IMG/VR virus record: IMGVR_UViG_2778261182_000005
From: a virus
Taxonomy: Duplodnaviria > Heunggongvirae > Uroviricota > Caudoviricetes
DNA: 7,543 nucleotides
Strand: one strand, 5' to 3'
In this document: positions 3,556-6,883 of the stretch, piece by piece
How positions within the stretch are numbered: position 1 is the first letter of the stretch
Layout of the letters: each line of letters starts with the position of its first letter
Position numbers and translations under genes: made by a program
Notes under the pieces: generated by a model
Database searches by the model: none
Told to the model about the DNA's origin: nothing
The model's input: only the letters and a program-made list of their open reading frames with translations

Positions 3556-3828
3556 TTACCTCCAGATACGCTGGCGATAACAATAAGGTGTGCGCGGCTG
3601 ACGGTTTGATACTGGCAGTGCCACCGAAACAAACCACGTTTTGCCGTCGATATTGAGTTGCCTTGTCACCACGTAACCGCGACGAGCGTACAACAACTCA
3701 AGCTCCTCAAGCTCATGCGTCGTGCAGTTCGGATAGTAAAAGGGCTGTTTTTCAGATACGCAAAAACGCCGCCCACGCCTGCTGGCAAGGCCGGCATCAG
3801 AATTGTGAAATTTGGTATTGCGCGCCAT
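3556..3828 (-). CDS. Hypothetical small phage protein (90 aa), nin-region
   Basis: ATG at 3828 preceded by AGGAG at 6-nt spacing; TAA at 3558-3556. Translationally coupled to the downstream DUF968 gene. No family recognised. Confidence 0.6.
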   Translation of the reverse strand: MARNTKFHNSDAGLASRRGRRFCVSEKQPFYYPNCTTHELEELELLYARRGYVVTRQLNIDGKTWFVSVALPVSNRQPRTPYCYRQRIWR

Positions 3829-3906
3829 CTTGACTCCTGTGGCGCAGCAGGTGCCAGTTGTTCAGGCTGGCGTGCGGATTGTAAACCAGAACACAGGGAT
3901 AACACA

Positions 3907-3926
3907 AAGCCCGCATCGGCGGGCTT
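3907..3926. terminator. Stable hairpin (8-bp stem AAGCCCGC/GCGGGCTT, 4-nt loop), candidate weak bidirectional terminator between the TA cassette and the nin genes
   Basis: Perfect inverted repeat at 3907-3914 and 3919-3926. On the minus-strand RNA it is followed by UGUGUUAUCC and on the plus strand by GAUUAUUAAG; both are only moderately U-rich. Confidence 0.4.
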
Positions 3927-3931
3927 GATTA

Positions 3932-4351
3932 TTAAGCTGAGCCCGGCGAATACCAGGGGAAATAAATATCGCTTAACGACGTGTGTTTGAGAACAGAGTC
4001 CACCGCCAATTTTAACGTCAACGACATGAAATTCTCAAAATACCATGAATTTTTCACAAAGAATTTTTCATCGATCAACTCTCCATTCATGATATCAAAG
4101 TCCGTAATCAGCTCCATCTTTAGCTCAAAAGAGGGTTCTTCATCCTCGGCAAGCCCCCCATCTCTATCGGGATACCCTTTTATCGATGGCGAAAACCCAA
4201 TCCGGAACCAACAGGTACCATCATCATCACGCCCCGAAGAAAATTTAACTTCCTCGATCGAGACCTTAAAAAAACCTCCATCATCACTAGTGTTATCCTT
4301 GAAACTACTGGAAACAATATCGAAACCAGCATACTTAATATTTTGTAACAT
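3932..4351 (-). CDS. Acidic hypothetical protein (139 aa from the coupled ATG; 144 aa from ATG 4366), third gene of the hicAB cassette
   Basis: ATG at 4351-4349 overlaps the hicB TGA (4353-4351) as TGATG. Strongly acidic (many D/E, few K/R) with one Cys. A sampled stretch (4021-4080) is about 28 percent GC. No family recognised. Confidence 0.6.
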   Translation of the reverse strand: MLQNIKYAGFDIVSSSFKDNTSDDGGFFKVSIEEVKFSSGRDDDGTCWFRIGFSPSIKGYPDRDGGLAEDEEPSFELKMELITDFDIMNGELIDEKFFVKNSWYFENFMSLTLKLAVDSVLKHTSLSDIYFPWYSPGSA

Positions 4352-4827
4352 CAGTGACGCATCCATCGCTCACCAGCCTCTTTCTTTTTTGTTCTTGCTG
4401 AAGGGGAAATGACGTAACCAAAAGAGAATGCTTTTTCCCAAACGAGCGTATCTGCCGTTTCTTCGCTTTCCGAATGAGAATAAACTTCTTTTTTGTCTGC
4501 AATCTTTTCTTCGATAGCTTTACGCACATAATCATTAAGCGTCGTCTTATCCGCCATTGCAGCCAAAAACGCTTTCTTATGAAGATCGCGACCAATTCTG
4601 ATGTTAAAAGTACCACTCATTGGTTTATCAGGAGATTTCCCTAACTGTTTGCATGTGTCGAGATAATCTGTAACAGCTTCTTCAAAAGCCGCCCTTAACC
4701 CACCCAGTGTTTCCGCTTCGTAGGTTACGACATCGTTTACGCACTGAATTTTCCCATGAAGTATGTTATCTTCAAGTGAAACCTCAATGCTGCCAAAATA
4801 ACCTTTATAACTCAGCACATTACTCAT
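4351..4827 (-). CDS. hicB: HicB-family antitoxin (UPF0150/RNase H-like N-domain plus RHH DNA-binding domain) with a roughly 45-aa C-terminal extension
   Basis: The N-terminus MSNVLSYKGYFGSIEVSLEDNILHGKI...TYEAETLGGLRAAFEEAVTDYLDTCKQLGKSPDKPMSGTFNIRIGRDLHKKAFLAAMADKTTLNDYVRKAIEE matches the HicB-like antitoxin pattern. Start taken as ATG 4827 (MSNV..., 158 aa); the track's ATG at 4842 adds 5 residues. Overlaps the hicA stop. Confidence 0.8.
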   Translation of the reverse strand: MSNVLSYKGYFGSIEVSLEDNILHGKIQCVNDVVTYEAETLGGLRAAFEEAVTDYLDTCKQLGKSPDKPMSGTFNIRIGRDLHKKAFLAAMADKTTLNDYVRKAIEEKIADKKEVYSHSESEETADTLVWEKAFSFGYVISPSARTKKKEAGERWMRH

Positions 4828-5068
4828 AACTATCAATCTCATCCAAAAGATTTTTCACTTCTTTAAGCACATATCCTTTAACAATATTGCCAGGATGTGG
4901 GCAATGAAAAGCCACAAGCCTTCCATTAGCATTGGTAAATTTCCTTCTTGAGCCTGAACCGGTAAGCATTTCGAAACCATAATGCCCAAGCAACGTCACG
5001 AGTTCATCCCATGTAAAATCCTTTGGAAGCTGATTCAGACGCCACCTCAACTTCTCTTTTTTGCTCAT
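4820..5068 (-). CDS. hicA: HicA-family toxin (YcfA-like mRNA interferase), 82 aa
   Basis: FTWDELVTLLGHYGFEMLTGSGSRRKFTNANGRLVAFHCPHPGNIVKGYVLKEVKNLL fits the HicA pattern (ELxxLL...G...GS..F....R...H.PH.G). Located upstream of hicB in the toxin-first order typical of hicAB. ATG at 5068 with a G-rich SD (GGGGGAAGGG) upstream. Confidence 0.85.
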   Translation of the reverse strand: MSKKEKLRWRLNQLPKDFTWDELVTLLGHYGFEMLTGSGSRRKFTNANGRLVAFHCPHPGNIVKGYVLKEVKNLLDEIDSYE

Positions 5069-5096
5069 TTAAAGTATATCCCTTCCCCCACCAATG

Positions 5097-5115
5097 GCAA
5101 CTAATAATCAGTTGC
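5097..5115. promoter_or_regulatory. Palindromic candidate operator in the hicA promoter region (GCAACT-aataatc-AGTTGC)
   Basis: Perfect 6-bp inverted arms with a 7-bp spacer, 29 to 47 bp upstream of the hicA ATG. It overlaps a possible -10 (GATTAT on the minus strand, plus 5104-5109) with TTTATC 17 bp further upstream. Confidence 0.35.
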
Positions 5116-5296
5116 AAACTCAGCGCGATAAAGAAGCATAAGAATCCTGCACCTAATTCATAACTACAGAAAACGCGTGCGAGCATGAAAATGCTACAAT
5201 AATGTTAAAACCACTTGCCAGTAAGGTTAAGTGCGGGTGCGTTGAGGATGCCTGACACATCAGAGGTGGCGAGGGATTTCTCCCCCGCCGGGTCTC

Positions 5297-5452
5297 TTAC
5301 TCCTCAGGTTCGTAAGCTGTGAAGACAGCGACCTCCGTCTGGCCGGTTCGGATTCGTACCTCGCAGAGGTCTTTCCTCGTTACCAGTGCCGTCACTATGA
5401 CGGTTAAACAGATGACGATCAGGGCGATTAACATCGCCTTTTGCTGCTTCAT
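5297..5452 (-). CDS. hokD: Hok/Gef-family type I toxin (51 aa membrane peptide), HokD/RelF-like
   Basis: Hand translation gives MKQQKAMLIALIVICLTVIVTALVTRKDLCEVRIRTGQTEVAVFTAYEPEE, matching Hok family and HokD/RelF as recalled. SD AAGGAG lies 8 nt upstream of the ATG. Not in the ORF track because it is under 60 aa. Confidence 0.9.
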   Translation of the reverse strand: MKQQKAMLIALIVICLTVIVTALVTRKDLCEVRIRTGQTEVAVFTAYEPEE

Positions 5453-5508
5453 AGCCTGCTTCTCCTTGACCTTTCGGTCCGTAAGAGGCTAATCTCTATG
5501 TGTCGCAT
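5449..5508 (-). CDS. mok-like leader ORF (19 codons) whose stop overlaps the hok start (ATGA)
   Basis: ATG at 5508-5506 (MRHIEISLLRTERSRRSRL) ends in TGA at 5451-5449, overlapping the hok ATG at 5452-5450. A GAGG SD lies upstream. The leader sequence is homologous to the plasmid R1 hok/mok leader as recalled (ATAGCCTCTTAC, AAGGAGAAG). Confidence 0.5.
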   Translation of the reverse strand: MRHIEISLLRTERSRRSRL

Positions 5509-5570
5509 AGATATGGCCTCAGATTAATGTTAAGCGTCTTGCCGGACGCGTAATGTTAACTGGGGCTTTT
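5500..5570 (+). ncRNA. Predicted Sok-like antisense RNA (approximate limits) complementary to the mok translation initiation region
   Basis: Inferred from hok/sok architecture. A plus-strand TTGACC (5466-5471) with a weak -10 (5489-5495) would start transcription just before the mok start and SD complement. A small hairpin GCGTC-ttgccg-GACGC lies at 5534-5549. The ends are not determined. Confidence 0.3.
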
Positions 5571-5626
5571 CTCTATCTGCCGTTGGTGTTCATGCCCGAG
5601 GCAGATAGCCTCAAGCACCCGCAGCA

Positions 5627-5741: not shown

Positions 5742-6650
5742 TCATCGTAAAATATCCTCCACGCTTGTCAGTCCGTTTCGCTCCAGGTAGTCCATCGCCT
5801 TATCAGGCAAGATACTTAATCTATTGGCGTACTTTAAGGAGTGGGCCAGTCGCTTGACCCACATTGTTAATTCGCTAACCTGGTTACCAGATACTGGTGA
5901 GTTGTCGGTTTTACCATGGCGGGCGGCGTAGTCGGCGCTCCATCCCTTCTCCTCCTGCGGCGGTTCAGGCAACGCTTCCAGTGAAGCTTTCACAAAACAC
6001 GCCGCCTGAACTATAACGCCATGAATCCAACGCAAATCAGCATCGCGATCTTTCTTTTTCATCTTCTCGCCACTTAAAGCCTGGCTTATGTGGCTGCGTA
6101 CCAGGTCTTCATGTAACTCCTTCGCATCCTCAATGGTGAAACCACCAGGCAGAAGAACCGAAGTTACCGGAGAGTTGGTTGACGTTTCCGCGATTCCCCG
6201 AAAATTGTTGGTTGACGAATTCTTGTTTTCCCGAAAATTTCCAGCCTGAAGCATGGCTTCGCGGCAATCGTTCCATCCTTCAGCATAATCACTATGCGCA
6301 AGAGGCCAACCTCTTATGTATTCACGCGGCAACTTATCAGGCACTACCATCGCTGGCGGCGCTGCGTAAAGCGGTGTTATTTCTGCCCGAAAGTCACCTA
6401 TTTCATGCAGTCGCACCCAGCGTTCGACTTCTGCTTTGTCAGAATACATAGTGGTGAACGTATTATATTTATTGTCAATTTGCGTGAAGGTTGCCTTCCA
6501 CGCCACTGGCTCTGCTTCCAGTGACGCCAGTGCGATACGAAACACATTGGCAAGCAGGCTGTCTGAAGATTGGTTATCGTGCGCCGGGTCGCTCAGGAAA
6601 CCAGTGATGAATGATTTAATCTCCGCGTTTTCTCTGGTAATAGTGGTCAT
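5742..6650 (-). CDS. Hypothetical phage protein (302 aa), two apparent domains joined by a low-complexity linker
   Basis: ATG at 6650 with SD AAGGA at 8-nt spacing (MTTITRENAEIK...). The track's longer version starts at TTG 6740 without a good SD. No family recognised. It occupies the position upstream of hok that relBE holds in E. coli K-12 Qin. Confidence 0.65.
   Translation of the reverse strand: MTTITRENAEIKSFITGFLSDPAHDNQSSDSLLANVFRIALASLEAEPVAWKATFTQIDNKYNTFTTMYSDKAEVERWVRLHEIGDFRAEITPLYAAPPAMVVPDKLPREYIRGWPLAHSDYAEGWNDCREAMLQAGNFRENKNSSTNNFRGIAETSTNSPVTSVLLPGGFTIEDAKELHEDLVRSHISQALSGEKMKKKDRDADLRWIHGVIVQAACFVKASLEALPEPPQEEKGWSADYAARHGKTDNSPVSGNQVSELTMWVKRLAHSLKYANRLSILPDKAMDYLERNGLTSVEDILR
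6174..6239. repeat. Tandem direct repeat, 2 x 33 bp, imperfect, inside the 302-aa CDS
   Basis: Unit 1 is gttggttgacgtttccgcgattccccgaaaatt and unit 2 is gttggttgacgaattcttgttttcccgaaaatt. The first 11 and last 9 nt are identical. It encodes the repeated NFR...STN linker motif. Confidence 0.6.
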
Positions 6651-6736
6651 ATCAGCTTTCCTTATATGGGTTGATTTTGTTGTGCAGTGTGTTGAACGAC
6701 GCCCATACCACGTCGTTATACAATTCAATAACTGGC

Positions 6737-6883
6737 TCAATTATTTTCCCGATTGCCCAGACAAAAATTAGCGGGGATATCGGCATCAGCAGCACTTCCA
6801 CCACGTAACTCTGCATAGTCCATTAACAGTTCATGCCATTCTTTAAAACTGACGTTGTATTTAGTTGAACCAAAATCAGCCAT
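6737..6883 (-). CDS. Small acidic hypothetical protein (48 aa)
   Basis: ATG at 6883 preceded by GAGGAGG at about 7-nt spacing. Hand translation gives MADFGSTKYNVSFKEWHELLMDYAELRGGSAADADIPANFCLGNRENN with TGA at 6739-6737. Below the ORF track's size cutoff. Confidence 0.5.
   Translation of the reverse strand: MADFGSTKYNVSFKEWHELLMDYAELRGGSAADADIPANFCLGNRENN

Follow-up and report, generated by a model that had tools for sequence, protein, structure and literature searches.

Toxin-antitoxin-chaperone (TAC) modules consist of a type II toxin-antitoxin pair and an overlapping gene for a SecB-like chaperone. Their antitoxins carry a variable, disordered, aromatic-containing tail, the chaperone-addiction (ChAD) element, which destabilises the antitoxin unless it is bound by the chaperone (PMC3581621, PMC5105189, PMC6377645). 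Three antitoxin families are known in TACs, HicAB among them, and every HicB protein known from a TAC belongs to the ribbon-helix-helix type (PMC3581621). Descriptions of HicAB-type TACs appeared in 2013 and 2016 (PMC3581621; PMC5105189), and TACs of E. coli were found to act against phages: a freshly synthesised phage protein, from the capsid in CmdTAC (PMC11618068) or from the tail tube in HigBAC (bioRxiv 10.1101/2024.02.24.581848), and the ChAD compete for the chaperone, so that the antitoxin is lost and the toxin freed. Here we describe a three-gene hicA-hicB cassette in the viral record IMGVR_UViG_2778261182_000005. The window, that is, the whole stretch of 7,543 nt that was analysed, covers the late-regulatory region (7.5 kb) in a lambdoid E. 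coli prophage, and all its genes lie on the minus strand.

We consider it very probable that this cassette is a HicAB-type TAC module, carried as a mobile accessory element of the prophage. It has the tricistronic toxin-antitoxin-chaperone order with overlapping genes, a third product with a predicted SecB fold, and an antitoxin extension that is absent from the sampled relatives without the chaperone. The original prediction for this locus had treated a three-gene hicAB operon as unprecedented, a view that does not hold, since HicAB-type TACs with a tail of ~40 amino acids (aa) were already published (PMC3581621; PMC5105189).

Three coupled genes and their relatives

The first two genes are what they had been predicted to be. 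HicA scores above the gathering threshold of its Pfam family (Table 1), and HicB matches the ribbon-helix-helix part of its own family, PF05534, over residues 55-105 (E 1.3e-17, 63.8 bits against a cut-off of 21), as well as the HicB-like antitoxin profile phrog_9151 over residues 1-118 (E 2e-47). The ribbon-helix-helix domain is clear, with an FNIRIG strand and two helices, and weak Arc-like and RelB-like matches fall on the same stretch. E. coli SC407 carries a 99.7% identical stretch, where the PGAP annotation labels the cassette genes HicA-family toxin, HicB-family antitoxin and 'hypothetical protein'. The first in-frame ATG of hicB is at 4842; the start most plausibly lies at 4827, which is the PGAP choice and is conserved in relatives.

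HicB extends 40 aa past the 119-position PHROG profile (residues 119-158), or 53 aa past the Pfam match, and the predicted extension of roughly 45 aa was thus a fair estimate. Aromatic and histidine residues recur loosely in the tail: K-E-[FY]-H-F-H, an aromatic cluster and a late W are found in most relatives, and the window protein has Y, W, F, F, Y and W. This tail would function as a ChAD, interacting physically with the chaperone and making the antitoxin dependent on it. Two open reading frames (ORFs) that overlap these genes in other frames, 3981-4412 on the plus strand and 4335-4616 on the minus strand, were rejected as shadows of the real genes.

The third gene had been described as coding for an acidic protein of 139 aa that is coupled to hicB by TGATG, and this description stands (net charge -12). 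In the window, the overlap is 8 nt between hicA and hicB and 1 nt between hicB and the third gene. The PGAP version of the third protein is 144 aa long and begins at the ATG at 4366; distant homologues start at the 'ML' of the 139-aa version. The ratio of nonsynonymous to synonymous substitution rates (dN/dS) is 0.07-0.30 against close relatives, which points to a genuine gene that is kept by purifying selection.

Related loci were recovered with an 11-sequence alignment of the third protein, and comprise 2 genomes (Yersinia and Erwinia) and 27 IMG/VR viral contigs. The order hicA-hicB-third gene is present in 29 of these 29 loci; the same order is seen in a Vibrio locus (L038) and in three distant members with 20-24% identity, from Pseudoalteromonas, Pragia and a metagenome. 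In all 33 related loci, which range from 20 to 97% identity and from Escherichia to Pseudoalteromonas, hicA and a long hicB come directly before the gene, with stop and start overlapping. The overlap between hicB and the third gene (1-8 nt; T[GA]ATG or ATGATG) and that between hicA and hicB are kept in every intact locus, and no member of the third family was found outside a long-HicB context in these searches. The synteny check proposed with the original prediction therefore has a uniform outcome, conservation in every related locus.

A second check proposed at the same time was whether HicB is normally this long. The answer is that the extension goes with the third gene. HicB relatives of 146-175 aa have a third gene, and none was found for relatives of 113, 120, 125 and 137 aa; this sample of short-HicB relatives is small, and for the 120-aa protein only ~100 nt of contig lies past hicB, with no ORF starting at the junction. 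Two apparent departures were rejected. The 119-aa HicB (P0065) is a frameshifted long HicB that is followed by the chaperone gene, and the different tail of a 163-aa HicB from E. coli (L043) arises from a frameshift into the +1 frame, the same frame as that of the rejected ORF at 4335-4616.

The tail is the fastest-evolving part of the unit. Identity to the window across related loci is 48-83% for HicA, 51-75% for the HicB core, 27-42% for the chaperone and 12-32% for the tail. A similar gradient is seen at closer range, where the E. coli locus L044 is identical to the window in HicA (100%) and nearly so in the HicB core (97%), with 78% identity in the chaperone and 62% in the tail. The dN/dS is 0.65 for the tail and 0.09 for the HicB core, figures that are based on small substitution counts. 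The conserved synteny, the association of long HicB with the chaperone, and the rapid evolution of tail and chaperone together make up the signature of a TAC.

Two loci of the same HicAB clade, which share the operator described below, have a different third gene. L039 (Microbulbifer; 2501-2935) and L040 (2503-3081) encode long HicB proteins of 163 and 175 aa and third proteins of 144 and 192 aa, respectively. The third genes have no convincing sequence relation to the window family (L040 gives a marginal 10.7-bit profile match) and none to Pfam; the 144-aa protein of L039, tried as a sequence bridge, matches neither SecB, nor PDB, nor the window family. They may represent further divergent chaperone lineages.

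Table 1. Features of the window (positions of the 7,543-nt stretch)
Feature	Position	Strand	Description
tRNA-Met (anticodon CAT) and second tRNA truncated by window edge	1-61 and 143-218	minus	downstream of Q
239-aa ORF	341-1060	minus	hydrophobic/aromatic-rich
Terminator-like GC-rich hairpin	3907-3926	minus	AAGCCCGC-CGAT-GCGGGCTT; just past the chaperone stop codon
Inserted cassette (moron)	~3915-5224	minus	carries the entire operon; 1.31 kb, 41% GC
Third gene, SecB-like chaperone (predicted), 139 aa	3932-4351	minus	ATG overlaps hicB TGA (TGATG); pI (isoelectric point) 4.33
hicB, antitoxin, 158 aa	4351-4827	minus	start overlaps hicA stop (ATGAGTAA); overlap kept in relatives
HicB C-terminal tail, residues 119-158, candidate ChAD element	4354-4473	minus	SESEETADTLVWEKAFSFGYVISPSARTKKKEAGERWMRH; 5 aromatics; outside HicB profiles
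hicA, toxin, 82 aa	4820-5068	minus	PF07927 E 5.4e-10, 39.7 bits against cut-off of 27; phrog_8887 'toxin' E 4.6e-26
Putative sigma-70-like promoter	5073-5100	minus	-35 TTGCCA (5100-5095), 16-nt spacer, -10 TATACT (5078-5073); 10/12 consensus matches
Operator palindrome (putative)	5097-5115		GCAACT-N7-AGTTGC, GCAACTGATTATTAGTTGC; overlaps -35 hexamer
hok	5452-5297	minus	PF01848
sok RNA	5620-5450	minus	RF01794, 101 bits
332-aa ORF	5742-6740	minus	upstream of sok/hok

The predicted fold of the third protein and the active site of HicA

An HMMER search of 1.84 billion cluster representatives returned only 55 clusters related to the third protein, nearly all of them 130-150 aa long and starting at 'ML'. 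The window protein has no match in Pfam (E up to 10), NCBIfam, PADLOC or the PDB sequences (phmmer); its sole family match is phrog_19522, annotated 'unknown function', and Pfam scans of 50 family members gave scattered chance matches only. Every source that names a member of the family calls it a 'hypothetical protein'. All occurrences of the family in these searches lie in HicAB operons, carried by temperate phages or other integrated elements of Gammaproteobacteria.

The original prediction had called for hidden Markov model (HMM) and structure searches with this protein, and the two gave different results: the HMM searches produced no SecB or Pfam match, but the predicted structure has a SecB fold (Foldseek). 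For an AlphaFold2 (AF2) model built from 5 sequences (pLDDT 78), all 18 top Foldseek matches in the PDB are SecB or the SecB-like chaperone Rv1957 of M. tuberculosis. A second AF2 model, from an alignment of 50 sequences, reaches a pLDDT of 91.1 and a pTM of 0.82, and shows four long antiparallel strands and then a long helix. In a viral structure library, matches 1 and 4 are phage proteins named 'preprotein translocase subunit SecB', and matches 2 and 3 are uncharacterised. We regard the models as decisive in assigning the third protein a predicted SecB chaperone fold, in place of the accessory regulator, DNA mimic, anti-defence protein or new effector that had been suggested for it.

The HicA of characterised relatives is a ribosome-independent mRNA interferase, and we infer from these relatives the toxicity and the target of the window HicA. 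In characterised HicA proteins the catalytic histidine (His28 in YpHicA3, His24 in BpsHicA) is essential (PMC11594946). The corresponding G-x-H motif is replaced in the window by G39-S40-R41 (codon 41 at 4946-4948), and in an alignment to the HicA-like protein 1whz, Arg41 is opposite His. Among two-gene relatives, L032 and L036 have the same change of His to Arg or Lys, and L034 retains His. A separate H-x-P-H-P motif is conserved in this HicA clade, and it might substitute for the missing catalytic histidine.

The cassette as an insertion and its surroundings

E. coli strain 3090 (L042) has an empty site, which defines the limits of the cassette. There, matches to window positions 3763-3914 and 5225-5495 lie only 7 nt apart, which proves an insertion of about the extent given in Table 1, and hokD is followed directly by a small ORF, DUF968, RusA and Q. 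The placement of the cassette between hok and the nin-region genes, as first proposed, is thus borne out by the empty site. The proposed AT-richness was correct in direction, with a GC content of 41.0% for the cassette against 50-53% for the flanks; the figure of about 28% GC that accompanied it is unrepresentative, being reached only in short local windows (the minima are 24% per 50 nt and 30% per 100 nt). The entire cassette is found in 13 of 5426 complete E. coli genomes. In the GenBank phage collection the whole cassette was not found, the match there being limited to the hok end.

The contents of the slot just downstream of hokD vary among prophages. The slot is empty in strain 3090 (L042 3035-3203), and in E. 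coli O121 RM8352 (L041 2182-2865) it holds a Doc-family toxin gene and a 59-aa ORF. Together with the HicAB-chaperone cassette, these differing contents identify the slot as a cargo hotspot. Related cassettes also occur elsewhere. In 15 of the first-recovered loci, and again in E. coli L044 and Pragia L046, the cassette comes right after a CI/LexA-type repressor gene; in phage lambda, the position right after the CI repressor is that of rexAB.

The upstream palindrome and the downstream hairpin of the original prediction were both recovered (Table 1). The palindrome has a chance expectation of 0.02 per window, and it is present exactly once, ~45 nt upstream of hicA, in 28 of 40 loci. These include Vibrio and two-gene relatives (L032, L033, L037), and the DNA around the palindrome is unrelated. 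It is likely, judging from this recurrence, that the palindrome is the HicB operator and is bound by the ribbon-helix-helix domain. The -10-like TATACT ends 4 nt ahead of the hicA ATG, and the hexamer and its spacing are kept in most related loci, with the variants TATATT, TATCTC and TATATC in more distant ones. If TATACT is the true -10 element, the hicA mRNA would be leaderless or nearly so, which we offer as a conjecture. Otherwise, translation could rely on a Shine-Dalgarno sequence, AAGGGA, at the unusually large distance of 12 nt upstream. At the other end of the cassette, the empty site has a hairpin similar to that of the window in the corresponding position, indicating that part of the hairpin is older than the insertion.

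In the direction of transcription, the genes of the window are small ORFs, the 332-aa ORF, sok/hok, the cassette, a 90-aa ORF, DUF968, RusA, a Q-type antiterminator, the 239-aa hydrophobic ORF and tRNA genes. A complete hok/sok type I toxin-antitoxin locus (5297-5620) is located immediately upstream of the cassette, so that two toxin-antitoxin systems stand side by side. Further upstream, the 332-aa ORF has no Pfam match, and the SC407 prophage has other genes at the same position. The 239-aa ORF, in a stretch of 36-40% GC between Q and the tRNA genes, also has no Pfam match and may be a further accessory gene. The region of SC407 that corresponds to the tRNA genes of the window encodes tRNA-Gly and tRNA-Thr.

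Proposed function, alternatives and comparison with known systems

There is a plausible scenario for how the cassette would work. A single autoregulated promoter, controlled by the HicB ribbon-helix-helix domain at GCAACT-N7-AGTTGC, would drive three translationally coupled genes. HicA would be a growth-arresting toxin that is neutralised by HicB, and the ~40-residue, aromatic-rich and fast-evolving tail of HicB would be a ChAD that makes the antitoxin prone to aggregation or proteolysis. The third protein would be a dedicated SecB-fold chaperone that binds the tail and keeps HicB functional. Titration of the chaperone, which in characterised E. coli TACs is brought about by a freshly synthesised phage capsid or tail protein, would then destabilise HicB and free HicA, with the outcome that infection is aborted or a superinfecting phage excluded. 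An anti-phage role of this kind is suggested by analogy, and the fast evolution of tail and chaperone, the mobility of the cassette and its repressor-adjacent location in many loci would fit it.

It is also conceivable that the architecture is that of a TAC and the role a different one, namely prophage stabilisation (post-segregational killing, or addiction) or stress response, with the chaperone only tuning the half-life of the antitoxin. The cassette adjoins hok/sok, a classical addiction module; the original TAC of M. tuberculosis was described as stress-responsive (PMC3581621); and the cassette has neither a known defence phenotype nor a PADLOC model. The much faster evolution of chaperone and tail relative to the core, however, is better suited to an arms race than to housekeeping, many prophages carry the cassette next to the repressor, in a rexAB-like position, and the characterised TACs of E. 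coli are anti-phage systems (PMC11618068; bioRxiv 10.1101/2024.02.24.581848). We therefore regard a stabilising or stress-related role as unlikely, though it deserves serious consideration. A different kind of alternative is that the module is decaying or inactive, in that HicA has lost its catalytic histidine and the cassette is a non-toxic remnant or a repurposed transcription regulator. The clade-wide Arg or Lys at the catalytic position would agree with such decay, as would the frameshifted HicB tails of two relatives. Yet three intact ORFs are conserved from Escherichia to Vibrio and Pseudoalteromonas with overlaps and operator preserved, and of the three proteins, HicA varies least among enterobacterial loci. 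The histidine change is itself clade-wide and ancient, the H-x-P-H-P motif provides a second conserved element, and dN/dS is below 0.4. Decay is thus improbable.

The remaining alternatives concern the third protein alone. It might be a general export or holding chaperone of the SecB type encoded by the phage, with the HicB extension serving an unrelated purpose, perhaps as a degron or as an additional contact with DNA. The predicted fold and the resemblance of the model to phage proteins annotated as SecB would suit a general chaperone, which is nevertheless very improbable given the strict linkage and translational coupling to long HicB in 33 of 33 loci, with no member found elsewhere, the model's lack of the SecB C-terminal helix, and the joint divergence of tail and chaperone within E. 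coli. Alternatively, the protein could be an acidic DNA mimic, an anti-defence protein, or an independent effector or regulator that is merely co-transcribed with hicAB. The pI of 4.33, the charge of -12 and the lack of a family annotation would be in keeping with a DNA mimic, but E. coli SecB is equally acidic (pI 4.26, net charge -14), so that acidity is here a SecB trait; the predicted fold, a SecB-type beta-sheet plus helix, is not of the Ocr/ArdA type; and the gene was found in these searches only directly after a long HicB with stop/start overlap, its presence tracking the HicB tail. We find such a role scarcely credible.

Several observations weigh against the interpretation of the cassette as an anti-phage TAC with a SecB-like chaperone. 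The SecB profile PF02556 matches neither the window protein (E up to 10) nor any of 50 family members (E up to 1), and a profile of the 50 members has no match in the PDB. An hhalign comparison of the family with the SecB proteins of E. coli and H. influenzae is co-linear but not significant (probability 0.6%), a weak test with two SecB sequences. The model also lacks the C-terminal helix alpha2 of SecB. The protein thus falls outside the SecB sequence family, and its assignment is a prediction from modelled structure and genomic context. HicA has Arg or Lys at the position of the catalytic histidine in all three-gene loci (clade alignment; L002-L040). PADLOC-DB v2 contains no match for HicA or the third protein and gives a weak AbiEii match for HicB (E 0.002), and no phage-defence phenotype is known for the cassette. 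Finally, the cassette of the window sits in the delayed-early region, away from the repressor, and its expression in a lysogen would therefore depend on its own predicted internal promoter.

A more far-reaching proposal, which we put forward tentatively and consider somewhat doubtful, is that the third gene represents a new lineage of SecB-fold chaperones, orphan in sequence, that would be the phage-sensing arm of an unrecognised prophage superinfection immunity ('HicABC'), often encoded after CI, where lambda has rexAB. The chaperone-tail pair would set the specificity of the trigger, and the HicA that lacks the histidine would use a variant or different chemistry.

TACs are a recent model for the detection of phage structural proteins through titration of a chaperone from an antitoxin tail, and the cassette makes plain that annotation by sequence misses some TACs, there being no Pfam, NCBIfam or PADLOC model for its chaperone. 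No chaperone of any kind is referred to in a 2024 survey of HicA gene contexts or in a 2024 review of HicAB. Recognition of the family adds a HicA-armed TAC to the repertoire of E. coli prophages and provides a simple search rule, namely to look for an acidic ORF of ~140 aa that follows and overlaps the gene of a long HicB. It also provides natural material for the study of specificity, in the form of near-identical toxin-antitoxin cores with diverged tails and chaperones as well as variants with frameshifted tails, and it flags a HicA clade without the canonical catalytic histidine. The TAC paradigm is thereby extended rather than changed, and the mechanism is not new.

In comparison with known systems, the cassette shares with two-gene HicAB modules (E. 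coli K-12, Y. pestis HicA3B3, B. pseudomallei; PMC11594946) the HicA and HicB Pfam domains, the toxin-first order and autoregulation, predicted here, through a palindromic operator. It differs from them in the third gene, the HicB tail and the Arg at the position of the catalytic histidine. Compared with SecB itself (PF02556; PDB 1qyn, 1fx3, 5jtl), the third protein has no profile similarity, resides in a toxin-antitoxin operon, and is predicted to lack the C-terminal helix and tail. The HigBA1-SecB^TA system of M. tuberculosis (Rv1955-Rv1957; PDB 5mtw is Rv1957 with a ChAD peptide; PMC6377645) has HigB and HigA with a helix-turn-helix domain, in contrast to HicA and HicB with a ribbon-helix-helix domain in the window. 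The window chaperone is 7% identical to Rv1957 over aligned residues, is shorter, and is modelled without the C-terminal helix.

Similar in setting are CmdTAC (PMC11618068), HigBAC of NT1F31 (bioRxiv 10.1101/2024.02.24.581848) and MqsRAC (cited there), which, like the cassette, are tricistronic, are carried by E. coli prophages or mobile elements, and combine a SecB-like chaperone with an aromatic tail. In these anti-phage TACs the ChAD is disordered, and the chaperone also serves to detect phage capsid or tail proteins, as we propose for the window cassette; their toxins are an ADP-ribosyltransferase, HigB or MqsR in place of HicA. Mmet-TAC of Methylomonas methanica MC09 (Metme_2813 hicA, Metme_2812 hicB and Mmet-SecB^TA; PMC5105189, PMC3581621) is of the HicAB type, with the same toxin-antitoxin-chaperone order, overlaps of a few nucleotides and a SecB-fold third gene product. 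Going by its published description, Mmet-HicB is a ribbon-helix-helix protein of ~159 aa with a ChAD at 119-159 (PMC5105189), against 158 aa and a tail at 119-158 in the window. The published TAC chaperones, including that of Mmet-TAC, were found by sequence similarity to SecB, whereas the window family has no detectable SecB similarity. The two systems also differ in host and vehicle, the window cassette belonging to enterobacterial temperate phages.

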